Positions 1,691 to 26,302 of a stretch of DNA of 64,000 nucleotides are shown one piece after another. The notes below the pieces were generated by a model. The model did no database searches. It was not told the origin of the DNA and saw only the letters and a list, made by a program, of their open reading frames with translations. Every line of letters begins with the position of its first letter. Position 1 is the stretch's first letter. The translations under genes and the position numbers were made by a program. The DNA is from a virus (taxonomy: Duplodnaviria > Heunggongvirae > Uroviricota > Caudoviricetes): IMG/VR virus record IMGVR_UViG_2695420859_000012; one strand, given 5' to 3'.

Positions 1691-4030
1691 TTAATCTTCT
1701 AATTCATCTGTCGGTGATGTCTTCTCGCGCCTGTCATCTATTGCCTGTAACGCAGCAATGATTTCAGCTAATGGCTTCTCCCGGTACATCTCGACGATCT
1801 GTGATTTGGTGTATTTCTTCTCGCCAATTTCCACACGCCCGCTGGCGCTCTTGGGCAGGTATCCTTCCTCCAGCATGTATTCAACCAGAGACTCGACGAC
1901 GTCCAGCCCGCGAGTCGGGTCGAAGTAGAATTTCCATGAGCATTTGCCAAACGGAGGCGCGACTTTGTTTTTAATGCACTCGGCGCCAACGTCCTGTCCG
2001 ATCTTCTCTTTGCCATCCTTCATGACGGATGCACCCAGACGGATGCGCACCGACGCGTAGAACTTCGGAGAGTCGCCACCCGGAGACGTAGTCGGATCGC
2101 CAAACATCACACCAATTTTGGTACGCACCTGGTTCAAGAAGATGATGCACGCGTTGTACTTACGCGCCCAAAGCGCCAGAGTAGGGAAGTTCGCACTTGT
2201 CGCGCGCGCCAGCGCCGTGTTGTCGTTCATGTTCAGCTGATCTTTGTCTTTCGCAGTGCCTTCTGCCATCTTGTCGAACTTCTCAGCCTTCGAGTTCGGA
2301 ACCATCGACGCCAGAGAGTCGGCTACGATGCAGATAGGGGCTGTTTCCGGAATAAGCTCTTCGTCGCGCACCAGCTTGAGGATTGTGCCGATCAGCTCTA
2401 CGGAGTCTTCGAAGGTATCCGGCTGTTTGTAGACCCACTGACCGTCATCCTCATCTGCGTTCAGGCCATTGGCTACAGCCAGGCCAACGTCAAAACTGTT
2501 TTCATGATCGAGGAATACCGCCAGACCATCTTGTTTTTGAGCGGAGATCATCGCTGCTGTTGCAAGGAATGTGTTGTGGCTGATAATCCCGTTAGACCAG
2601 AAAGAGTGTGTTTCCGGCATCGCTACGTCGAACGTTGGTGCTTCACCTTCCTCAATAGCCACGACTTCGTCGTAGAACAAGTTAGAGCCAATTACCGCTG
2701 CCAGTTGTGCAAACAGATGCTCGTTAAAACGATTCTTTCTGCCAATGAAGGAGACATAGATTTCTCGCAGTTTGTCTATTCCGACACGATCGCCGCGGCC
2801 AATAACGTGGTCTACCAGAGCGTAGTCTTCACGGGTGGTCTTGGTGAGCGACTCGTAGAGTGATTTCACTAAGCCGCTGATGTGCGGAACATAGCCTGAG
2901 TAAGTGCGGTCAAAACCAATGTCCCGTTTGGTTGCCACTGATAAACGTGCCGGAGATTCGAAACCAATCGTTGACAGAAAAAGGTCGTAATTAGAGCCAC
3001 TGAATGACAGCCGGTAATATGTATTTTCATAACCCGCGACGTGTTTTTCAGAGATAGTTGACGTAATCCCCAGATTCAGGAGCATGAGGCGAATTTGCTG
3101 TAGCAGCAGCCCACTCGCGCTCACAACCTCAATGCAGCGACCATCATTGACGTGGCATTCCAGCTCAAAGTAGCCGCGAAGGAATGCAATTTGAGCCTCG
3201 CTATTGGCGCGACGCACACTCAACGGAACCTGCTTGCCAGCAGCTTTCTCATACTCCAGACCATATTCTTTAAAAAGCAGCGAACGCACCTCTTTGCTAA
3301 ACAGCACATGGTCTTCCGAGCCGTTATGTTTTCTCGTAACTGGCATCTTGTCTGATACCAGCGAAATGAGGCGGTAGTACTCATCCTTGATGAAAGGATC
3401 TGTGTTAGAAAAATTCACTGAATTTTCAGAGGCGACGTATCCGTCAGCAATTAAATAGCCCATCAGTTTTGCGATATTGGCATCCAGGTGCTGATCGCCG
3501 AATTGATGTGTGCCAACCATTGAAGGAATCGTGTCGCCTACACTGATTTTTTCAGCATGTCGCCAGACGACATTACCTAAGTCGTCAACCACACGGATTG
3601 GGTGACGGAACGTAGCCTCGATATAACCGCCTGATGCCAGCTTAATACGCTTGAATTTGCGACGGTTGTTCCATGTCAGGTGTGAGGTCTTCTCTATCAC
3701 GCCATTTTCATTGATGAGTCCAACGTTATGCTCTACATCGCGAGTAGTGCATGTCGCTTTGTACCCTTCAATCTCAAACAACTCTTTCACTGTTACCATT
3801 CCACGCTCCGTCAGCAGCATGGTGTCTGCGGTAACACATTTCCCTGCACTTGGAGGACCGAATACTTCGACGATACGACCACATGGGAAGCCGCCATCGT
3901 AACGACCAGAAATAGCTTTGTTTAACGGTGGAAAGCCTGTATCAATCCAATGAGTTACTTTCTGAATTTCGTCGTTGCTACCGATTTTCTTTTTCAGAGC
4001 AAGTGCCAGTGCGGATTTTCCTTTTGCCAT
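1691..4030 (-). CDS. recA: RecA-family recombinase interrupted by an intein in the Walker A P-loop
   Basis: N-extein ends GRIVEVFGPPSAGK, C-extein resumes TFLATAAM... and contains IIFLNQVRTKIGVMFGDPTTSPGGDSPKFYASVRIRL, closely matching bacterial RecA as recalled; exteins total 357 aa. Confidence 0.85.
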   Translation of the reverse strand: MAKGKSALALALKKKIGSNDEIQKVTHWIDTGFPPLNKAISGRYDGGFPCGRIVEVFGPPSAGKCVTADTMLLTERGMVTVKELFEIEGYKATCTTRDVEHNVGLINENGVIEKTSHLTWNNRRKFKRIKLASGGYIEATFRHPIRVVDDLGNVVWRHAEKISVGDTIPSMVGTHQFGDQHLDANIAKLMGYLIADGYVASENSVNFSNTDPFIKDEYYRLISLVSDKMPVTRKHNGSEDHVLFSKEVRSLLFKEYGLEYEKAAGKQVPLSVRRANSEAQIAFLRGYFELECHVNDGRCIEVVSASGLLLQQIRLMLLNLGITSTISEKHVAGYENTYYRLSFSGSNYDLFLSTIGFESPARLSVATKRDIGFDRTYSGYVPHISGLVKSLYESLTKTTREDYALVDHVIGRGDRVGIDKLREIYVSFIGRKNRFNEHLFAQLAAVIGSNLFYDEVVAIEEGEAPTFDVAMPETHSFWSNGIISHNTFLATAAMISAQKQDGLAVFLDHENSFDVGLAVANGLNADEDDGQWVYKQPDTFEDSVELIGTILKLVRDEELIPETAPICIVADSLASMVPNSKAEKFDKMAEGTAKDKDQLNMNDNTALARATSANFPTLALWARKYNACIIFLNQVRTKIGVMFGDPTTSPGGDSPKFYASVRIRLGASVMKDGKEKIGQDVGAECIKNKVAPPFGKCSWKFYFDPTRGLDVVESLVEYMLEEGYLPKSASGRVEIGEKKYTKSQIVEMYREKPLAEIIAALQAIDDRREKTSPTDELED
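2573..3838 (-). mobile_element. Intein (about 422 aa) with LAGLIDADG homing-endonuclease domain, inside the recA P-loop
   Basis: Begins with Cys immediately after GPPSAGK and ends ...IISHN followed by Thr; LAGLIDADG-type blocks LMGYLIADGYV and FLRGYFELECHVNDG. Confidence 0.8.
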
Positions 4031-4032
4031 GA

Positions 4033-4305
4033 TCAGGCTCCTTTTGTTTCGTTGATTCGTTTTAAAGCGGCGGATTCATCGAATACAATCGCATCGTGGT
4101 TAAGGAGTCTGGATACACGAGCGAGGATTTTTACGACCTGCTCGCTGACTAATCCAAACTCGCGATCTGTCGCTTTCATTCCGGCAGCGCCTAGAATTGA
4201 CGGCAGTGCGATGACAGCGTACTCACCGTGATAAAAGACAATCTCTTTTGCCAGTTGGGCAGGGGTGGTTGTAGCGCCATTAATAATTGATTTAAGCATT
4301 AGCAA
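4033..4305 (-). CDS. Hypothetical protein
   Basis: 90-aa ORF packed between exonuclease and recA genes. Confidence 0.4.
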   Translation of the reverse strand: MLMLKSIINGATTTPAQLAKEIVFYHGEYAVIALPSILGAAGMKATDREFGLVSEQVVKILARVSRLLNHDAIVFDESAALKRINETKGA

Positions 4306-5294
4306 TACCTTTCGAATGGAAGAACATACACTTCAAGGTCTTCAAGGAACGAACGGAAATTCAGCTCGTAGCACAGTTGCTCGAATGCTTTCACGTCACG
4401 ATTGCCTTTGATTGTTTCGATTTCGGTAGGCGGAAACTTCGTCTCAATCAGGTTCATTAGCGTGATGTTTCTCTTGAACGCTTCGAGCATTCGACAGCCT
4501 GTTTTCTCGTTGAAGGCATTCTTCGCTAGTTTGTTGAAGGCGGTCTTATGGCGTCCTTTGTCAACCACGATTGAGCCGTCGTTGATGCCGCGTACCATCG
4601 TTGCGACACTTCCCCATTCATGCAGCAGCTCTTTCGCACCGCCAGCACCAATGCCACCAACACCGCTAATGTTGTCCGATTTATCGCCTTGTAATGCTTT
4701 TGCTTCCAAAAATGCGCGAGGAGTAGCGAATCCTGTCAGCTCCGCAAATTGCTCAAAATTAACCTGCTTGTTTTTGGCGTCTTCACGCAGGCTTACCCAG
4801 CTTACGTTTTCACGAACTAACTGAAGCCAGTCGCTATCGCCTGTTAACAGATAGATGTGTTCAACGGTTGGCTGCGGTGCCATGCGGGATACCAGCAGCC
4901 CGGCCAGATCATCCGCTTCTGCATCTTTTGCAATGAGTTGGGTAACTCCAAGCGCGGTCATCATTTTGAGGATGTATGGCTTCTGGATAGCAAAGCCTTC
5001 CTTCATCTTTTTCATATCAGGATCGTCGTCGCGATTTGCTTTGTAGTCCGGGTAAAAGTCGCGACGCTTGTCACTAAATCCATCCCAAAGAATCATAGGT
5101 CGGGCATGGAGGATGGAGGCATAACGACGGACGTTCTTAACAAAGCCGAAAGCAGCCTGTACTTCCATTTCGCCGTTGTGCAATTTGTCAGATTGTTGGT
5201 GGTAATAACCCAGGCTATTGCCATCTACGAAGAGATAATTCACCGGTACATTCCTTCCAAAAAGTAAGGCGTCCGTAGACGCCTTACTGGTCAC
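4299..5294 (-). CDS. 5'-3' exonuclease / flap endonuclease (FEN, RNase H-like)
   Basis: AKDAEADDLAG acidic motif and H3TH-like GDKSDNISGVGGIGAGGAKELL. Confidence 0.75.
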   Translation of the reverse strand: MTSKASTDALLFGRNVPVNYLFVDGNSLGYYHQQSDKLHNGEMEVQAAFGFVKNVRRYASILHARPMILWDGFSDKRRDFYPDYKANRDDDPDMKKMKEGFAIQKPYILKMMTALGVTQLIAKDAEADDLAGLLVSRMAPQPTVEHIYLLTGDSDWLQLVRENVSWVSLREDAKNKQVNFEQFAELTGFATPRAFLEAKALQGDKSDNISGVGGIGAGGAKELLHEWGSVATMVRGINDGSIVVDKGRHKTAFNKLAKNAFNEKTGCRMLEAFKRNITLMNLIETKFPPTEIETIKGNRDVKAFEQLCYELNFRSFLEDLEVYVLPFERYC

Positions 5295-7007: not shown

Positions 7008-8177
7008 TCACGTCTTAATAGTTTCTGCTACGTCGGCTAATATCGCTTCTAGTCGTTCTCCCTCTTCAGGTCTGAAGTAAAGAATGTTGGGGTTAAACCC
7101 GTAAAAGACAGTAACGTCAAGGTCTGGAAGATACTCCTTCCTGCCGACCAAATCGGATGGCTTGTTTTTGTTGTTAAACAATGAAGTTGCCCGGCTGCCA
7201 CACGTCAGCACATAGGTCGGACGCACCAGATTGATCTCTTCACGCATAAAGTCGGTGAACTGGCCGATCTCGTCTTTGGTGTAGTCTTTTTCTTTGTCTT
7301 TAACCTTCTTGCAAACACCTGTGACATAGAGATCGCCCATGCGTAAATCTCCAGCCGTCAATAGCTTGGCCTTAAAGTCGTCGTATCCGTTCTCCATAAA
7401 GTAACCGGTTCGAGCATCATTGCCGTTCGCATTGTCCAGAATGATCATGATTTTCGGCTTAATACCAATGCTGGGGCGGATTAGTTCATCACCTAAGCCC
7501 ATTTCAGCCGCCATCCGCGTCATGAGTACGTTAATTTCAGCCGAACGTTTGGGGTTCATCTCAAACGGACGTGAGGCTTTAACTGCGTCTATGACAAGGT
7601 TTCCCATCAATTCAGCCTGGTCGCGTAGGCGCTCTGGATCAGTTGCTGGCAGACTGCCTGGCTCGATGGATGCAAACGCCCCTACTTTTTGCAGCGATTC
7701 GCGCACTCGACTATTACAGGCACGTTTCTCGACAGCTTCTTCGAATTGCGCCAGTGACTCGAATTTGCCGCCAACTTTTTCTCGCGCTCTCATGATGGCT
7801 TGGCAGCCATTCTCAGAACACCCCTTCACAGCAGAGAAGGGCGCATACAGCACCTGGCTGCCATCTTCAAGCGTGCGGATCTCGATTCGGTTAGATGACA
7901 CGTTAACGTCTGGTGGCAATACGCGAATGCCATAGGTCAGCGCATCTTTAACCAGCCCCTGGTGTTTATCTTCGCCAAGAATAGTGAGAGCAGCAGCGAA
8001 AAACTCTGCGGGATAATGAGTTTTCAACCACATAGATTGATAACTGATTAAGGAGTAAGCAACAGAGTGTGATTTGTTGAAGGCATACGCGCCGGATTTC
8101 TCAAACATATTCCAGATTTCTTCGGCTCGTTCGTGCGTCAGGCCATTGCTCTCTTCGACAACACCGGTAATTTTCAT
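7008..8177 (-). CDS. dnaE: DNA polymerase III alpha (DnaE-type), C-terminal fragment
   Basis: ERAEEIWNMFEKSGAYAFNKSHSVAYSLISYQSMWLKTHYPAEFFAA matches the DnaE finger region as recalled; GAGG 7 nt before the ATG, which overlaps the HNH stop (ATGA). Confidence 0.8.
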   Translation of the reverse strand: MKITGVVEESNGLTHERAEEIWNMFEKSGAYAFNKSHSVAYSLISYQSMWLKTHYPAEFFAAALTILGEDKHQGLVKDALTYGIRVLPPDVNVSSNRIEIRTLEDGSQVLYAPFSAVKGCSENGCQAIMRAREKVGGKFESLAQFEEAVEKRACNSRVRESLQKVGAFASIEPGSLPATDPERLRDQAELMGNLVIDAVKASRPFEMNPKRSAEINVLMTRMAAEMGLGDELIRPSIGIKPKIMIILDNANGNDARTGYFMENGYDDFKAKLLTAGDLRMGDLYVTGVCKKVKDKEKDYTKDEIGQFTDFMREEINLVRPTYVLTCGSRATSLFNNKNKPSDLVGRKEYLPDLDVTVFYGFNPNILYFRPEEGERLEAILADVAETIKT

Positions 8178-8908
8178 GCAGTCACCTCATCAATCTTCAC
8201 GAACTCATACCCATTGGAGGCCAGCCAGTTCCGTTGGCGCTCCCAGCTCCATATCTCTTCACGCATTTCACTATGCAGGCGAATGTGGGCGTCTTCTGGA
8301 AGTGCTACAAGATTCCCAGGGGCGTTATCTATCGTATCGCGGTTAATATGGTGGACATGTTCATCGTCACGTAGCTCCCGACCGAGACGTTCTTTCGCTA
8401 TCAATCGATGAACGTATTCGTATTGCGAAACGCCATTGTTACCAACCAGCTGCATCATGTAGCCGTTGGTTTTTACGATGATGCCACCTTTGTAGTTGTT
8501 CGCTTCTTCTCCGATCTTTCCGCGTTTGGCAGCCGCCAGCTTTTCCTTCGTCTCCGCGCGGATTGTTCTGCCGGTTAGCTTTTTCGAAACGGTGGCCACT
8601 CGCTCATCGATATCAGCACGCAGACCGGCATTCCACGAGGTTTTCCCATACATAGGGTTGCCAGTGCCAGTCCGGGCTTCGGAGAGACGCTTCATACGTT
8701 CGTCATTATTTTTGTTTTTGCCACGATTCCAGGCTGGGGTAGCGGAGATCCGCGCGCTTCCGCGCCTGATCCCCCATTTGGCTAATAAGCGGTCAATATT
8801 TGCCTTGCTGCAACCAGCTTCGGCGGCAATGTCTTCTTTTCTCATCAGGTCAACCATGTAACGCTGACGTAACCATTCTTCTGTGATTTTGTACTTCGTA
8901 CTCGGCAT
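8174..8908 (-). CDS. HNH homing endonuclease inserted within dnaE
   Basis: HNH motif EHVHHINRDTIDNAPGNLVALPEDAH; separate frame and start. Confidence 0.8.
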   Translation of the reverse strand: MPSTKYKITEEWLRQRYMVDLMRKEDIAAEAGCSKANIDRLLAKWGIRRGSARISATPAWNRGKNKNNDERMKRLSEARTGTGNPMYGKTSWNAGLRADIDERVATVSKKLTGRTIRAETKEKLAAAKRGKIGEEANNYKGGIIVKTNGYMMQLVGNNGVSQYEYVHRLIAKERLGRELRDDEHVHHINRDTIDNAPGNLVALPEDAHIRLHSEMREEIWSWERQRNWLASNGYEFVKIDEVTA

Positions 8909-8956
8909 TTCTAAGACTCACTAAACAAATTGTTTTCTTATCTTATAAATTAATTC

Positions 8957-11320
8957 TCAAATATCGAAGCTCGTTATGTCGGCATTTATTGCCATTGCTT
9001 CGGCATAAGTGCGACGCTCACCATCAGCACAAAGTAGGCGTGCTGCTTTATGGATTTTTCTCGTAGAACCATCATCCAGTGACACTGTCACCCAGCCTTC
9101 CTCCGCTCGCTTAATGAAGTCGCCGCCAATGGATTTCATTTTCTCCATATCTTTTTTCCCGATCGCTTTCCTGACCGAGTCTGCTTCCGCCATTGAGAAC
9201 CCCGCCAAGATTCGCGTAGCAGCCATGATCTGTTCCTGATAAATCAGAACTCCGTTTGTGTCGCGAGAGATGTCGTCCAGCATTGGGTGTAAGGAATGTG
9301 GGGCCATGAAGCCTTTGGCCACGGACACATAATCGTCCAACATGCCGGATTGAATCGGGCCAGGTCGGAAGAGCGCAGTTGTAGCGACGACCGTTTTAAA
9401 GCTCATTGGCTCAATTCCACCACCTAAATCTTTAAGCAGCTTGCGCATTGGGCCTGATTCAAGCTGGAATACGCCCTGTGTATACCCTGCAGCAAAACCA
9501 TCCAGCACCTTGCGATCTTCAAGAGAAATGGCATCAAGATTGATATCTTCACCTGTGTTCTCTTTTATGTAGCGTTTTGCACTATCGAGCAAATCGAGAG
9601 TTGCCAGGCCAAGCACGTCCAGCTTAATTAGGCCCATAGCCTCGCAGTAACGCTTGTCAAATGCGATACAACGCGCGTCACCACGGCGTTCAACCGGTGT
9701 ACGTTCTGTCAGAGGAACACCTGCTACGATCATCCCTGCCGCATGTCTACCAAAGCCACGCATAAGGCTTTGTAACTTGCAGGCTGCATTGAATGCATCA
9801 GGATATTTTGTTGCGTATTTGTCGAGACTTGCCAGTTGTTCGCGCAGCTCTTCCAATGGAAGGCTATCATCCTCGACGTTCTTCAGTTCTTTTGATACCG
9901 CCATATCTGCGGACTCCACACCATAAATACGAGCGGTGTCACGTAGTGCAGAGGCTGCGCCCAGGTAGGTGAAGTTCGGAATGCCTGCAACGTAATCTTC
10001 GCCGTAGCGTTCATTCAGATACTCGATCACCTCATGGCGACGTGCCTGGCTGAAGTCCAAGTCCGCATCCGGCAAGTCGAGACGCTCAGGGTTGATGAAA
10101 CGCTCAAACAGAAGACCGTGACGGATTGGGTCGACGTTGGTTATGCCTATGCACCACGCCACCAGAGAACCGGCAGAGGAACCACGACCAGGCCCGACAG
10201 GAATGCCAGTTTCACGGCTGTGATTCATCAGATCGCGTACCATCAGGAAGTAACCACAAAATCCCAGGCGAGTAAGCGTGTCCATTTCGTACTTAAGTCG
10301 CTCAACATAAACCCTGTTCTCAGAAGCAGGTGGTGTGTATCCAAACTCTTTTGTGGTAAGACGTTTACGCAGCCCTGCAACAGCCAGTTTCATCAGCGTT
10401 GCAGGTTCGTCGTCTGCCATCTTGGGCAGTGCTGGTGGCAATTCATGCCAGCGCCATGTGCAGGCATCGATAATGGAGTCCTGCGTTGTTGAGGCCATTG
10501 CAGCTGTTACCGGCACATCCATGCGAACGGAGAAGGCTTTAAGCGCCTCAAGGAGATGGCGACGACCATTGATGGCGTTATCTCGCTGGTGGGGGATACG
10601 CAGACGATGCGGCTGGTCGATTTTTATGTTGTTCGTAACCATGTGCGCAATGTCTTTAATGTCTGCATCGTCGATCGATTCGTAATAAGCGGGATAGAAC
10701 GCTACTGGCTCTATTTTCAGTGCGCTGGCGACTTTCATCGCCCGGACGTTAATCTGGTCGTAGAATGGGGTAGGGTGCGGATAAACCACACTATAGAAGT
10801 TGTCTTTTCCACCCGCTGTAATCAGTGTGCTTATGATTTTTGCAAAATCGTTGCGTTGGAACACGCTACCGATGTCGGAAGTAAGCAGGATGATGTTGCC
10901 TTTGGCATATGTAGAAACCAACTGTTCGAGCGAGAGACGCGGTACAAAGTAGAACTGTTCTCGTGTGTTGGCCGCCGTCATTAGTTCGCAGATGTCGCGA
11001 TATCCTTTCTCATTTTTAATTAGAGCGGTAAACGAGTAGTTACGTCCTCGCTCTAATGATTCCATACATCTCATAGATTCTTTAGCAAGTTTAGCCCGGT
11101 GCTCGTATGTGGGATCATCAACAATGTTTAGTTTCACACCACAAATAACCGCCATGTCGTCACCAGCGGCACGTTGTAGTGGAATAACGCTCGCAATATT
11201 CATGCTATCTGCTGAAATTACAGCGGTGTAGCCAGCTTCTCTGGCAATCTTCACCGCGTTTTCTGCTTTTAGAGCCGACTCCCCAAGTGAGAAGTCAGTT
11301 CGAACCATCAGTGCCTTCAT
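8957..11320 (-). CDS. dnaE: DNA polymerase III alpha (DnaE-type), N-terminal part
   Basis: GYFLMVRDLMNHSRETGIPVGPGRGSSAGSLVAWCIGITNVDPIRHGLLFERFINPERLDLPDADLDF matches the DnaE catalytic core as recalled; ORF stops 44 codons after the point where similarity to uninterrupted DnaE ends. Confidence 0.85.
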   Translation of the reverse strand: MKALMVRTDFSLGESALKAENAVKIAREAGYTAVISADSMNIASVIPLQRAAGDDMAVICGVKLNIVDDPTYEHRAKLAKESMRCMESLERGRNYSFTALIKNEKGYRDICELMTAANTREQFYFVPRLSLEQLVSTYAKGNIILLTSDIGSVFQRNDFAKIISTLITAGGKDNFYSVVYPHPTPFYDQINVRAMKVASALKIEPVAFYPAYYESIDDADIKDIAHMVTNNIKIDQPHRLRIPHQRDNAINGRRHLLEALKAFSVRMDVPVTAAMASTTQDSIIDACTWRWHELPPALPKMADDEPATLMKLAVAGLRKRLTTKEFGYTPPASENRVYVERLKYEMDTLTRLGFCGYFLMVRDLMNHSRETGIPVGPGRGSSAGSLVAWCIGITNVDPIRHGLLFERFINPERLDLPDADLDFSQARRHEVIEYLNERYGEDYVAGIPNFTYLGAASALRDTARIYGVESADMAVSKELKNVEDDSLPLEELREQLASLDKYATKYPDAFNAACKLQSLMRGFGRHAAGMIVAGVPLTERTPVERRGDARCIAFDKRYCEAMGLIKLDVLGLATLDLLDSAKRYIKENTGEDINLDAISLEDRKVLDGFAAGYTQGVFQLESGPMRKLLKDLGGGIEPMSFKTVVATTALFRPGPIQSGMLDDYVSVAKGFMAPHSLHPMLDDISRDTNGVLIYQEQIMAATRILAGFSMAEADSVRKAIGKKDMEKMKSIGGDFIKRAEEGWVTVSLDDGSTRKIHKAARLLCADGERRTYAEAMAINADITSFDI

Positions 11321-17118: not shown

Positions 17119-17237
17119 GTAGGCCTTTTTTATAAAATCTGTGATTCTTCTCAGGATAAATTATCTAAACTAAAAATTGTGTTTTGTGTTGGCATCTGCT
17201 TGAATAGACGCATGTTTATTCAGATATGGAATAATCA

Positions 17238-17774
17238 GTGAACAACCAAATTCATTGGGACTACCCATTCTCAGAAGAATTCGGCAGTGGGATGGTACAC
17301 AGACAATTCACTGTGGGAAGCACTATTTATGCCGTTGGGTTTGAACAAATATTGACGATGGATGATTTCACACGTAAGGGAGTTGATATCCTAAATGTAC
17401 ATCCAACATTCCGGTTTCCTCTGAGTGGTGTATGGGGAGTGATTTTTGACGAAATTGACCCTGTAGAAATGGATTTCAAAGGATTTCGGCATATCCAACA
17501 TCAAGGCTTGGCAGGTGGTCAAGTGCTTTTGAATGTTGCAAGTATAATCTTTGACCATTATACTGTTTGTAACGCAGGAGCTTATGTCTTCTCCGCCGCA
17601 GACGACCATCAGCATTTACGCAGAACTGACTTGGTAGACATTTACTGTAAGATACTAGGTCTAAATGGAAAACGTAAAAGTAGATTGTTCGCCAATGGTT
17701 TTCCTGGATGGGAGGCATACTGTGATGTACCAACAGGAGGAAGAGGCTATGTCGTCACGACTGAAAGTTATTAA
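17238..17774 (+). CDS. Hypothetical protein, weak GNAT-like motif
   Basis: 178 aa; QHQGLAGGQVLL loosely resembles GNAT motif A; plus strand in accessory island. Confidence 0.4.
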   Translation: MNNQIHWDYPFSEEFGSGMVHRQFTVGSTIYAVGFEQILTMDDFTRKGVDILNVHPTFRFPLSGVWGVIFDEIDPVEMDFKGFRHIQHQGLAGGQVLLNVASIIFDHYTVCNAGAYVFSAADDHQHLRRTDLVDIYCKILGLNGKRKSRLFANGFPGWEAYCDVPTGGRGYVVTTESY

Positions 17775-17976
17775 TTATTACCCCACCTCTGCAGAACGTT
17801 TGAGCCTTGAAATGGGCGAAAGACTACAGAAAGCTGCTGGTCAGGATTTAAAGAACAAGTTGGGTTCAGGGGAAATTAAACTGATTAACGGTAAATATGT
17901 AGGTGAAAGCCTGAAAGTTAATAGCACCTCTATGCTAAAAGCGCGGTTGCGTAAAGCGTATATCTCCGCTAAATGA
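17749..17976 (+). CDS. Small hypothetical protein, overlapping downstream partner of 17238..17774
   Basis: Re-called start ATG at 17749 behind AGGAGG (MSSRLKVINYYPTSAERL..., 75 aa); track ORF 17665..17976 starts further upstream. Confidence 0.35.
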   Translation: MSSRLKVINYYPTSAERLSLEMGERLQKAAGQDLKNKLGSGEIKLINGKYVGESLKVNSTSMLKARLRKAYISAK

Positions 17977-18005
17977 AAAGGCCTATATGGGCCTTTTCAT
18001 TTTTA
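17976..18005. terminator. Intrinsic terminator hairpin between convergent genes
   Basis: aaaaggcc-tatatg-ggcctttt followed by cattttta. Confidence 0.6.
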
Positions 18006-18248
18006 TAGTGTACTCACCAGCGCCGCAAATTCCGTATACCCCCCAATATGCTCTCCATGTATGAATATCTGAGGTATGGTATCCACTGGTTTACCAACCT
18101 GGTTGCTCAACGTTTCTTTGTTGATCCCCGCAGATGTAATATCTATATACTCATAATCACCGTAGCCATGTCCCTTTAGTTGCTTCGCCAACTCGACCGC
18201 ACGTTTGCAGTATGAGCAGTTATCTCGTCCGTAGATAGTGATCGTCAT
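18003..18248 (-). CDS. Glutaredoxin (NrdH-like redoxin)
   Basis: 81 aa with CSYC active site (MTITIYGRDNCSYCKRAVELA). Confidence 0.8.
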   Translation of the reverse strand: MTITIYGRDNCSYCKRAVELAKQLKGHGYGDYEYIDITSAGINKETLSNQVGKPVDTIPQIFIHGEHIGGYTEFAALVSTL

Positions 18249-18421
18249 AACTTAACAAATACCTTTATAAATATTGATTCGAACATATCAGACTATACTA
18301 CAAACAGATTTTTTTGATAAGTATGTAGTAACTTATTGATTGACTAGTAAACAATTGAAGTGATTACGACAATAGATTACAGTAAGGATTGCCTTGAAAT
18401 GTACATTTTATAGAGGTTTTA

Positions 18422-19330
18422 ATGATTGGTAAGTTGTCTGATTCTTTGATTGAAAATAAATACAACGAATTTAGAGAAGAAATATCTTTACTTTTTGACT
18501 ATTTAAATCAGATAAATGATACAACAAAGAAAAATATAAAACGTCTTCTTAAAGAAGTGGAGTATGCACAAAATCCAGATACTATTATTAATATTAATGA
18601 AACTATTAAGATTAAGTGTGGCACAACGTTAGCTCGCCATTTATGTTCAAACCCATATACAGGTTCAACATTAGAGATAGGTAACAGCGCCATTGATTTA
18701 GAAGAAAAGATAAGATTGTGTAATACTTTGAAAAATAAACAATATCAGTGGGTTATTACTGAAGCCTATGAGTTACTGGAAGACTATATTGAGGCAATAT
18801 ATGTCTATACTGTATGTGTTCGAAATGATTTATGGTCCTCAAGTGATTTTGGTAAGGTTGAAGATGATGAAATTGGGAAAAGGGAAGTTTATTACAGATT
18901 ATTAAAAGCAAAAAGTAACCCATCGAAAAAAATAACTAAAATTTTCAGAAATAAAATACCTGGCTTCAAAGAGATAGAAACAAACAACAAGATTGGCAAA
19001 AACTATCGCTTTAACATCAAGCTAATTGAACTACTAAGACATACAATAGTACACAATAGTGGACGATTCAATGATACAGAAAAATTTATAAATAAGGTTT
19101 TAGATGAATCTGAAATAAACGGTAAGAAAAGAGTTATTGGAGAAAGAGCTGTTAGAAGTTACATTACTAAAGTGCAAGAAGATGATATTGTGATGCTCTT
19201 AGAAAGACCATCTGAAATTTTAGGTTCTTTTGGTGGGTATTTTAACAGAGCAAAATTTTTACTAAGTGATATTTTAGAATACTCACTAATCATTAAAGAA
19301 GAACTAAAATCATATCTAGGCAATCATTAA
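18422..19330 (+). CDS. AT-rich cargo protein with HEPN-like Rx4H motif; candidate abortive-infection/defence protein
   Basis: 302 aa; LLRHTIVHNSG (R206-x4-H211); Lys/Asn/Ile-rich; AGAGG RBS; own terminator. Confidence 0.45.
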   Translation: MIGKLSDSLIENKYNEFREEISLLFDYLNQINDTTKKNIKRLLKEVEYAQNPDTIININETIKIKCGTTLARHLCSNPYTGSTLEIGNSAIDLEEKIRLCNTLKNKQYQWVITEAYELLEDYIEAIYVYTVCVRNDLWSSSDFGKVEDDEIGKREVYYRLLKAKSNPSKKITKIFRNKIPGFKEIETNNKIGKNYRFNIKLIELLRHTIVHNSGRFNDTEKFINKVLDESEINGKKRVIGERAVRSYITKVQEDDIVMLLERPSEILGSFGGYFNRAKFLLSDILEYSLIIKEELKSYLGNH

Positions 19331-19331
19331 C

Positions 19332-19362
19332 AAAAAAGGGGCCGAAGCCCCTTTGGATTTTG
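19332..19362 (+). terminator. Rho-independent terminator
   Basis: aaaaggggc-cgaa-gcccctttt then ggatttt. Confidence 0.7.
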
Positions 19363-19507: not shown

Positions 19508-19594
19508 CTGGCGGAGAGTAATGGAATCGAACCATCATCGCTTGCGCAATGGGACGGTTTTCAAGACCGCTTGAGCACCATGCTCCCTACTCTC
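19508..19594 (-). tRNA. tRNA-Ser (anticodon UGA), type II, CCA encoded
   Basis: Own cloverleaf: acceptor GGAGAGU/ACUCUCC, anticodon loop CUUGAAA, long variable arm, T-loop GGTTCGATTCC. Confidence 0.7.
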
Positions 19595-19694
19595 CAGCTA
19601 TTGTGATGGTCGGTGCTGAACTCCGACACAGGGTTGTAGCAAGCCCCGCAAAGCGCGCACTACTGTAGTTGCGGCACATCAGCCTGTGCATTCA

Positions 19695-19773
19695 TCACAA
19701 CGGTAAGATCACTACCTTTCGACCAGTCATTGTGCACATGAACGACGATTAACCGTAATGATCTTATCGTTGT
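19695..19773. repeat. Stem-loop of the CACAACGGTAAGA family
   Basis: cacaacggtaagatcac pairs with atgatcttatcgttgtg. Confidence 0.55.
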
Positions 19774-19824
19774 GTTGTGAAGCCAGATGCTTATCTTCTG
19801 GTTGCTTCAAAGAGCTGCACTTCC

Positions 19825-19913
19825 TCACAACGGTAAGAGCACTGGTCTGACTCTATCGATTTACGGCCTTGTGGGTCAGTATCGCCGATTCGCCCAATGC
19901 TCTTACCTGTTGT
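19825..19913. repeat. Stem-loop of the CACAACGGTAAGA family abutting tRNA-Thr 3' end
   Basis: cacaacggtaagagca pairs with tgctcttacctgttgtg. Confidence 0.55.
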
Positions 19914-19914
19914 G

Positions 19915-19990
19915 TTGGTGCCGGTTAACGGACTTGAACCGCTGGCCATTCGCTTACAAAGCGACTGCTCTACCAACTGAGCTAAACCGG
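19915..19990 (-). tRNA. tRNA-Thr (anticodon UGU), CCA encoded
   Basis: Own cloverleaf: acceptor GCCGGUU/AACCGGC, anticodon loop UUUGUAA, T-loop GGTTCAAGTCC; 76 nt. Confidence 0.65.
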
Positions 19991-19994
19991 CAAT

Positions 19995-20081
19995 TTGGTG
20001 GGGAGTGATGGAGTCGAACCACCCGAGTCGCCATGACAGTAGATTTACAGTCTACACCGCTACCTCTACGGACTAACTCCC
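19995..20081 (-). tRNA. tRNA-Tyr (anticodon GUA), type II, CCA encoded
   Basis: Acceptor GGGGAGU/ACUCCCC, anticodon stem GUAGA/UCUAC with loop CUGUAAA, long variable arm. Confidence 0.7.
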
Positions 20082-20086
20082 CTAAA

Positions 20087-20161
20087 TTGGCGATGGTGGG
20101 TGGATTCGAACCACCGACCAGTTGGTTAACAGCCAACTGCTCTACCGCTGAGCTACACCAT
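20087..20161 (-). tRNA. tRNA-Asn (anticodon GUU), CCA encoded
   Basis: Acceptor GAUGGUG/CACCAUC, anticodon stem GUUGG/CCAAC with loop CUGUUAA, T-loop GGTTCGAATCC. Confidence 0.75.
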
Positions 20162-20430
20162 CAATTCAGCACTGCCAGTATTTATTACTCAACAGTGCCA
20201 ATCGCGACGGTTTAGTTTCTGCCAGGAAACGCACCGCTACTTGCACTTTTCGTTAGTGCCAGACGCTTTCGACTTCGCTCAATAGTAGAAGGCAAAATCT
20301 TTAAGTAGATGATGTTTCTGAGGACAGCACCTACTTTGTAATTTATACAATGTGATGTATGGAATCATTTGTTGTGAAAACAGGCACCAATGGCAACAGT
20401 GGTTAAACCTACACAACAATCCCGTCTTCA

Positions 20431-24923: not shown

Positions 24924-25156
24924 GTTGGCTTCCCTTTATTTATATTTATCGCAGGTATTAGTTAATCAAAACACGAGCAGTGCCACAATAATTAAATGGC
25001 GTACTATTTCTTATGGTTATTAGTTTCCTAGTAACTTTACCGACCATAAACTAAATCAACAAAGCTGACATATTAACTAAATTTAAGTACCATTTTTCGC
25101 ACACTTGACACTTGCCGCGTCTAAACTGTTCATCCTATATCAACAGAACAAAAAAT

Positions 25157-26302
25157 ATGAAATACATAAAATCTTCATCGTTGCTGGCATTAACTTTGCT
25201 TTTTAGCTCTGGATTCGTTAACGCAGACAATAAACAAACGCTGATAGAAGCCGCTACCGCAGGGGATACCGCAGCACAAAGTGAGTTAGGGACAAATTAT
25301 TTTGATGGTATCAATGGTTTTGATAAGGATGTAGTTGAGGCCAAGAAGTGGATTGATCTCGCTGCAGAAAAGGGAGACAAAGTAGCATATTATGCACTTG
25401 GGGTTATGTACACATTTGGCGAGGGTGTAGATAAAGACTTAAATAAAGCAGTTGAGTACTACAAACTTGCGGGAGATGCTCGTGAAGGTAGAGCCTATAA
25501 CAATCTTGGTGCTATTTATCAAAAGGGGATGCTTGGTAAAGTAGATCATGCGCTCGCCATTAAATACTTCAAACTAGCCTCTGATGCCGGGTATGTTAAA
25601 GCTAGCTACCTTCTTGGTGCGTATTACCAATATGGTAAAGGTGTACAAAAGAGTTATAAAAAAGCTTTTACTTATTACAAAAAAGCGGCGGATCAAGGTA
25701 GTTCAGATGGCATGTTCGCATTAGGCACCTTATACGATGACGGTTTAGGTGTTAAACGCAACGATGCCGAAGCAATTAAGTGGTATAAAAAAGCTGCTGA
25801 ACTCGGAAACGCCGATGCCATGACAAATCTTGGCATTATGTATGAGTATGGTGAAGGGGTTAAAAAAGACTATAAAAAAGCAGCTGAGCTTTATCAGGCT
25901 GCTTGTGATAAAGAAGATAAAAATGGCTGTGATTACATTGCAGAACTGAAAGAAAGCGGCAAATATCGAGCGCCGGCTTCCAAAGCCAAAACAAAATCCG
26001 CCACCCAGCGACTTATTGCTAAATCCATTGATAAGGGCGTTAACGCTACATTTACCTGGCAGGGTGATGATGCTACCTTCACCGCTAATGATGGCAAAGT
26101 TGACTGCACCTTCCTGAAGGATTTTTCAGAGAAAGGAGGCAATCTGGCTACCTCGTTTGTTTGCACCGATAACGTTCAAATCATACTGAAGCAATTCAGA
26201 GATACCAAGAATGCCTACCTCGCGGTAATGACTGACAACTTCAACACAGAAGTTAAATCATTTTCGGTCAATGTGTACGTGACTAATACTGGTTCAAACT
26301 AA
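25157..26302 (+). CDS. Secreted Sel1-like repeat protein with unknown C-terminal domain
   Basis: Start re-called at ATG 25157 (MKYIKSSSLLALTLLFSSGFVNA); tandem Sel1-type repeats (KWYKKAAELGNADAMTNLGIMYEYGEGV...); about 115-aa non-repeat C-terminus. Confidence 0.7.
   Translation: MKYIKSSSLLALTLLFSSGFVNADNKQTLIEAATAGDTAAQSELGTNYFDGINGFDKDVVEAKKWIDLAAEKGDKVAYYALGVMYTFGEGVDKDLNKAVEYYKLAGDAREGRAYNNLGAIYQKGMLGKVDHALAIKYFKLASDAGYVKASYLLGAYYQYGKGVQKSYKKAFTYYKKAADQGSSDGMFALGTLYDDGLGVKRNDAEAIKWYKKAAELGNADAMTNLGIMYEYGEGVKKDYKKAAELYQAACDKEDKNGCDYIAELKESGKYRAPASKAKTKSATQRLIAKSIDKGVNATFTWQGDDATFTANDGKVDCTFLKDFSEKGGNLATSFVCTDNVQIILKQFRDTKNAYLAVMTDNFNTEVKSFSVNVYVTNTGSN

Follow-up and report, generated by a model that had tools for sequence, protein, structure and literature searches.

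Judged by sequence comparison, a 302-residue protein encoded on a phage-plasmid of Escherichia coli is the founding example of a widespread protein family that is absent from curated libraries. Its gene is horizontally mobile cargo in a hotspot slot of a temperate phage-plasmid, and its fold, according to a structural model, is probably of the HEPN type. We regard the family as probably a new stand-alone family of the HEPN superfamily, and the proposed function makes it a candidate abortive-infection RNase. The full reading, to which we give about an even chance, is that the protein is a stand-alone catalytic enzyme of this superfamily, from an unannotated family, that is carried in a moron-like cassette and probably acts as a triggered RNase in conflicts among phages or between phage and host. 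What is new here is the sequence family and its architecture; the HEPN kind itself is well known.

SSU5-like phage-plasmids, the group to which the carrier belongs, are frequent among clinical Klebsiella, Salmonella and Shigella, and the accessory slots of these elements partly determine which phages, therapeutic ones included, can infect the carriers.

A swappable cassette in a conserved backbone

The window, i.e., the whole stretch of 64,000 nucleotides that was analyzed, comes from an E. coli SSU5-like phage-plasmid. This follows from the proteins of the locus, which are 100% identical to those of E. coli plasmid pM160133_p3 (NZ_CP022167), and from the kinship of the element to 'Escherichia phage CMS-2020a', phage Cyrano/pLF82 and Salmonella phage SSU5. 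The backbone includes genes for an AAA ATPase, a CobT-like protein, an HTH regulator, an integrase, GrxA, a tRNA cluster, DNA ligase and primase, and these genes are common, at high identity, to elements that do not carry the 302-aa gene. The integrase is 99.5% identical in Cyrano. For grxA, identity is 79-84% in sibling elements from E. coli and Citrobacter, and the figure for Klebsiella is 69%. The phage-plasmid ligase was found in 246 of 5,426 complete E. coli genomes (~4.5%). Features of the locus are listed in Table 1.

Table 1. Features of the locus and of one chromosomal relative (window positions unless other loci are named)
Feature	Position	Strand	Basis
grxA glutaredoxin, left backbone flank of the slot	18003..18248	-	RefSeq annotation of identical plasmid
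Swappable single-gene cassette, 1,082 bp, GC 0.287	18249..19330	.	Cyrano breakpoints; other cargo in siblings
Putative sigma-70 promoter, TTGAAG, 17-nt spacer, TACAGT (8/12 consensus matches)	18355..18383	+	allele conservation
Ribosome-binding site AGAGG, 5 nt before ATG	18412..18416	+	read from sequence
ORF, 302 aa, ATG start	18422..19330	+	ORF listing
Residues 93-133, presumed HEPN helix 2, with NxQxxW (N105, Q107, W110)	18698..18820	+	model, conservation
E117 codon, invariant, on residues 93-133 helix	18770-18772	+	conservation in 130 members
Residues 195-212, presumed HEPN helix 3	19004..19057	+	model, conservation
R206-H207-x3-H211 motif, predicted catalytic site, ends helix 195-212	19037-19054	+	conservation, model
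G+C-rich hairpin terminator, outside cassette	19334..19354	.	terminator scan
tRNA cluster Ser(UGA), Thr(UGU), Tyr(GUA), Asn(GUU), right backbone flank of the slot	19509..20162	-	ARAGORN
P0010 insertion in E. coli chromosomes	L047-L050, about 7300-9250		position between tam and uxaB

The original prediction, made from the sequence of the window, had described the gene itself correctly. The plus-strand ORF begins with an ATG that is preceded by an AGAGG site, and it opposes the backbone: its immediate neighbors, grxA and the four tRNA genes, are on the minus strand, as is the ligase gene further downstream. The AT-rich, Lys/Asn/Ile-rich character that had been reported is equally evident. The ORF has a GC content of 0.292 (GC3 0.224) vs 0.466 for the window (z = -4.6), which is the lowest value among all 909-bp spans of the window, and its product contains 11.3% Ile, 10.3% Lys, 10.3% Leu, 9.9% Glu and 8.3% Asn.

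At the nucleotide level, similarity to Cyrano by descent breaks off where grxA ends (18248) and starts again with the base that follows the stop codon (19331). These exact breakpoints define the acquired unit as the 1,082-bp cassette. The gene had originally been placed in an island together with a recombinase, a regulator and tRNAs; since the integrase, the HTH regulator and the tRNAs are conserved backbone, acquisition as such an island is rejected. The broader claim of horizontally acquired cargo holds, given the breakpoints, the swaps between alleles and the narrow distribution of the gene. The cassette allele of the window occurs in 19 of the 246 complete E. coli genomes that bear such phage-plasmids, always on plasmids. 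In E. coli siblings the 302-aa gene product is only 59% identical where backbone proteins are 96-100% identical, and Klebsiella and Citrobacter elements have alleles of 39-43% identity in the same place and the same orientation.

Other siblings fill the slot with Gp49 (PF13876), with a 420-aa protein or with a two-gene set. The 420-aa protein is encoded on the plus strand (3726-4988 in both L054 and L055) by an AT-rich gene (GC 0.31), has no Pfam or PADLOC match and is another candidate conflict gene; neither it nor Gp49 carries a defense annotation. The two-gene set, both genes being on the minus strand, occupies the slot of sibling phage-plasmid NZ_CP124485.1 (L056 3499-4873). Its 261-aa protein matches models of PDC-M68A, SduA (Shedu) and CBASS-effector endonucleases, with E-values down to 9e-25, and its 183-aa partner gave no matches.

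The original prediction had also assigned the gene a strong terminator of its own. A G+C-rich hairpin is indeed present directly 3' of the stop codon, but it is 96% identical in Cyrano, which does not have the 302-aa gene, and the minus strand has the better of its T-runs. The hairpin is therefore shared backbone sequence, and it probably ends transcription of the tRNA cluster. On the upstream side, the -35 sequence TTGAA and a 17-nt spacing to TAnnnT are kept in front of four alleles (protein identity 39-59%). As a promoter of the 302-aa gene this TTGAAG/TACAGT arrangement is plausible; its score is under the cutoff of the promoter scan. The intergenic region between grxA and the cassette gene also holds a palindromic element, GATAAGTATGTAGTAACTTATT (18316-18337; TAGGT..ACCTA in siblings), that is conserved between alleles from E. 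coli, Klebsiella and Citrobacter. A minus-strand promoter-like site (18320-18292) pointing at grxA overlaps it with its -35 end, and the element may be an operator.

Variation is seen elsewhere around the slot. Between the genes for integrase and GrxA there is another variable slot (17120-18030), with homology to Cyrano stopping at 17119 and resuming at 18031; its cargo consists of two overlapping plus-strand ORFs, orf178 (17238-17774) and orf103 (17665-17976), for which no match was found in Pfam or PADLOC. Around grxA, Klebsiella and Citrobacter siblings have YafO toxin, colicin-E1 immunity or PhoH genes instead. On the other flank, the tRNA cluster occurs in siblings that do without the 302-aa gene, Cyrano among them. 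The window cluster has four genes, of which tRNA-Tyr (19996-20082) is absent from Cyrano and pECAZ155_2, and the tRNA-Ser/tRNA-Thr spacer (19611-19909, ~300 bp) has no homology to Cyrano. tRNA-Tyr is present in at least 262 E. coli genomes, whatever the slot cargo, and does not co-vary with the cassette allele. Farther away, a gene for a Sel1/TPR-repeat protein with a signal-peptide-like N-terminus (25112-26302, plus strand) likewise runs opposite to the backbone orientation, in a stretch of lower GC (0.39); the identical plasmid annotates its product as a tetratricopeptide repeat protein.

Conservation and predicted fold of the 302-aa protein family

All public sources label the 302-aa protein hypothetical. 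The sole PHROGs result is phrog_35492, to which it is identical and whose function is given as unknown, and a search of the literature for the accession and for HEPN genes on SSU5 phage-plasmids yielded no description of it. A word-indexed homolog search found eight relatives, and a second such search, seeded with a profile, found no further ones. An exhaustive profile search returned 453 clusters, counted at 50% identity, at E<=1e-3, and 142 of these were at E<=1e-30; the clusters come from a variety of bacteria and prophages. Family members are nearly all 285-310 aa long. With a conserved family behind it, the gene is not a chance ORF.

Three residues, E117, R206 and H211, are invariant in an alignment of 130 members. 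N105, Q107, W110, Y127, W138, E186, N189, H207, V210 and G214 are conserved in at least 90% of these members, H207 in 97%. R206 and H211 lie in the segment LLRHTIVHNSG (residues 204-214), for which the original numbering was right. It had been cautioned that a single short motif carried the assignment, and the caution was justified: a bare R-x4-H turns up in ~20% of composition-matched shuffles of the protein, so the motif alone is not beyond chance. What lends Rx4H its weight is that it stays invariant throughout the family.

In both E. coli and Klebsiella, copies of the gene that are split or frameshifted turn up repeatedly, on plasmids H46 (CP012114.1) and H53 (NZ_CP072464.1) and among proteins P0005, P0006, P0185/P0186 and P0189/P0190. 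Such copies could reflect either a fitness cost or ordinary decay.

Two of the checks that had been proposed with the original assignment were profile searches (HEPN, Abi_2 and related profiles) and structure prediction, and their outcomes differed. In the profile searches, neither the single sequence, nor 130 members, nor consensus sequences gave a match. No significant match was found for the 302-aa protein in Pfam, NCBIfam or PADLOC, and no significant family for the 130 members in Pfam and PADLOC or for the consensus sequences in Pfam; profile searches of PDB sequences returned only chance matches (CmlS, SNAP-25). In Pfam, NCBIfam, PADLOC and PDB sequences, no established HEPN family showed homology with statistical support, either by sequence or by profile. 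Assignment to Abi_2 (PF07751), which had been suggested among those profiles, is rejected for want of a profile match: in Pfam the query had none at E<=10 and the 130 members none at E<=0.1, and PADLOC reported no AbiD/AbiF.

The faint sequence echoes that were seen were only to HEPN families, namely DUF3644, HEPN_Apea, Csx1/Csm6 and Cas13a. The echo of DUF3644 covers residues 182-223, over the Rx4H helix, and came from 3 of the 130 members (best member E 0.0065); that of HEPN_Apea, over the same helix, came from one of the 130 (E 0.022). No other Pfam family gave even a faint match. Scores for these two families are far under the gathering thresholds (7.9 bits vs 27.6), and the consensus sequences gave no match. 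We also built a narrow profile from the genuine HepT of a HepT-MntA pair in one of the loci (L043, 9632-10266). Comparison with this profile by hhalign was not significant (probability 0.1%, E 0.46); the sole local alignment paired LIELLRHTIVH with LMAKMRDKLIH, matching the Arg residues, and likewise the His residues, of the two motifs.

An AlphaFold2 model built from a deep alignment (pLDDT 93.7, pTM 0.90) consists of a long N-terminal helix (residues 2-50), a beta-hairpin (69-91), a long helix (93-133), a helical insert (134-194), a further helix (195-212), an alpha/beta insert (213-275) and a C-terminal helix (276-300). We infer that residues of about 2-50, 93-133, 195-212 and 276-300 form a four-helix HEPN core, which would be decorated with the beta-hairpin and the two inserts. 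The best PDB fold matches of the model are HEPN domains, as the original prediction would have it: about 17 of the best 60 belong to the HEPN superfamily, when classed by their descriptions, and the HEPN matches span 117-128 residues in targets with lengths of 126-151 residues. Foldseek searches against viral structures gave nothing at E<=0.001.

HEPN domains have been defined (Anantharaman et al. 2013, PMC3710099) by an all-alpha core of two alpha-hairpins in a four-helix up-down bundle; by an Rx4-6H motif located where helix 3 ends or the next loop begins; by a polar N, D or H right after the conserved Arg; by a conserved acidic residue in helix 2, typically in the form Ex3[KR]; and by an insert between helices 2 and 3. 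With the core helices assigned as above, the model has such a bundle of two alpha-hairpins. R206 and H211 are at the C-terminal end of helix 195-212, with a loop after them, and H207 follows R206. The helical insert 134-194 separates the E117 helix from the Rx4H helix. E117 is on helix 93-133, which precedes this insert, but the residue at +4 is Asp121, so the Ex3[KR] form is absent. These features point to a fold that is probably of the HEPN type.

A second HEPN-like protein may accompany one family member, found in a Burkholderiaceae MAG. Directly upstream and on the same strand, an ORF of 166 aa (L038 2582-3082) contains RNKLIH, an Rx4H-type sequence; it has no Pfam match.

Genomic context, proposed function and alternatives

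The context of relatives was sampled at 41 loci, which represent Proteobacteria, Campylobacterota, Desulfobacterota, Bacteroidota, Nitrospirota and further phyla. Most family members lie on chromosomes of bacteria from a range of phyla and have no phage genes close by, and no conserved neighbor gene was found in 39 loci. In 97% of 39 loci the gene exceeds its flanks in AT content, with a mean gap of 12 GC points. Neighboring genes are a mix of ordinary metabolic, mobile-element and known defense genes, and many neighborhoods are housekeeping in character. Among the mobile-element neighbors are integrases, Bro-N, P2 tail genes, a transposase and ToxN, and PADLOC matches among 117 flanking ORFs include type IIG and type I R-M, PD-Lambda-1, PD-T7-5, Avs4, AbiEi, PDC-S15 and PDC-S13. 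The defense association of the family is a qualitative one.

An E. coli chromosomal relative (P0010; 32% identical, GC 0.30) stands alone as an insertion next to the lsr operon, with tam on one side and uxaB on the other. A bestrophin-family ORF (L050 7307-7855) is called in one of these strains and not in the others of L047-L050. Any tRNA gene is nearby in only 5 of 40 chromosomal loci, and tRNA adjacency is a trait of the phage-plasmid backbone rather than of the family. A functional link to the adjacent tRNAs was rejected on this count, together with the presence of the cluster without the gene and the independent distribution of tRNA-Tyr.

We propose that R206 and H211, at the end of helix 3, would form the active site together with H207 as the polar residue after Arg and E117 on the presumed helix 2. 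By analogy with characterized HEPN enzymes, the protein would be a metal-independent endoribonuclease, active in dimeric or higher oligomeric form, whose products have 2',3'-cyclic phosphate ends. On the plasmid prophage it would probably be transcribed from its own promoter, and, as there is no antitoxin, the proposal has the enzyme itself held inactive in the lysogen. An infecting competitor phage would switch it on, and the active enzyme would then cut tRNA, rRNA or mRNA and thereby abort the infection, on the model of HepS and ApeA, two HEPN systems that each consist of one protein. The genomic context makes such a role in defense or abortive infection plausible.

An RNase of this kind might instead benefit the phage and have no part in host defense, acting in the lytic cycle or in establishment (e.g., host shut-off, RNA processing, superinfection exclusion or counter-defense). 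In elements of E. coli, Klebsiella and Citrobacter alike the gene lies in a phage genome next to phage tRNA genes. This position would fit such a role, as would the use of the same slot by Gp49, an ordinary phage protein family, and the occurrence of relatives on 14 viral contigs, several of them near contig ends. However, the chromosomal location of most members, in many phyla and away from phage genes, argues against it, and the presence of the allele in only 19 of 246 E. coli carriers indicates that the gene is dispensable for the phage life cycle. The gene also opposes the immediately flanking backbone genes and probably has its own promoter, as morons do, and tRNA content does not co-vary with it. 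We consider a phage-benefit role rather unlikely.

The HEPN part of the original prediction is supported by HEPN-like fold matches and by a family-invariant Rx4H at a helix end, but by no profile match. A different possibility concerns the chemistry. The protein might be a non-RNase helical protein that has converged on a HEPN-like four-helix bundle and uses Glu, Arg and His for other chemistry or for ligand binding, an explanation that we hold to be unlikely.

Quite unlikely, in our estimate, is an addiction (toxin-antitoxin) toxin that stabilizes the phage-plasmid with an unrecognized antitoxin. HEPN RNases are common toxins of toxin-antitoxin systems (e.g., HepT/MntA and RnlA), a YafO toxin gene is located close to the grxA flank in sibling plasmids, and frameshifted or split copies are what is expected of a costly gene. 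Yet no adjacent gene is conserved in the 39 loci, and the cassette holds no second or small ORF, tandem repeat array or Rfam element as an antitoxin candidate. With no partner ORF, repeat or RNA in the cassette and no conserved neighbor, a toxin-antitoxin pair was rejected. The E. coli chromosomal relative is, moreover, a solitary insertion, and most related phage-plasmids do without the gene.

Very unlikely is an elaborate form of the abortive-infection proposal, in which the family would be an undescribed one of trigger-activated single-protein HEPN abortive-infection nucleases that, in SSU5-like phage-plasmids, has a quickly swapped slot reserved for defense beside the element's tRNA genes. 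The 302-aa protein would then act as an anticodon nuclease, with the neighboring tRNAs (Ser, Thr, Tyr, Asn) serving as cleavage-resistant spares for the element's own lytic cycle while competitors are aborted.

Should the 302-aa protein prove to be an active HEPN RNase with a defense phenotype, defense-finding tools would gain a new family, the grxA/tRNA-Ser slot would be a defense hotspot of these elements, and another partner-less HEPN enzyme would be at hand for studying how such toxins are silenced and triggered. If it is not a defense gene, it is one more uncharacterized moron.

Comparison with known HEPN systems

The HepT proteins of HepT-MntA systems (PF01934, PF05168; PDB 7ae2, 5yep, 8xdj, 1jog) are about 115-140 aa long, whereas the protein described here has 302 aa and three large inserts. 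Sequence or profile similarity between the two is not significant. The HepT motif is Rx4HxY, in contrast to RHTIVHNS in the 302-aa protein, where no Tyr follows the His, and HepT-MntA has an MNT nucleotidyltransferase antitoxin, a partner that the 302-aa gene lacks both in the 39 loci and in the cassette. A type VII toxin-antitoxin system of the HepT-MntA kind was rejected on the missing adjacent MNT gene and the missing Rx4HxY, with the genuine pair in L043 as a positive control.

Abi_2 (AbiD/AbiD1/AbiF, PF07751) offers a likeness in general design: both are single genes for proteins of ~300 aa, with a HEPN-type Rx4H, carried as AT-rich mobile cargo. They differ in that neither the 302-aa protein nor other members of its family match Abi_2 in Pfam or PADLOC. 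DUF3644 (PF12358) is listed as a HEPN family (PMC3710099). EC042_2821 of the DUF3644/EC042_2821 group has wHTH, REase and Zn-ribbon fusions, and the 302-aa protein is without them.

Single-protein systems come nearer to the proposed mode of action. HepS is an abortive-infection anticodon nuclease of the Gifsy-1 prophage that consists of a single HEPN protein (PDB 9oik; PMC13043305). It has 218 aa and no detectable sequence relationship to the 302-aa protein, and its structural match to the model is weaker than those of HepT-like domains. ApeA is a stand-alone HEPN defense protein, and it is the HEPN_Apea family that the 302-aa family faintly echoes. HepS and ApeA are the closest working models for the 302-aa protein.
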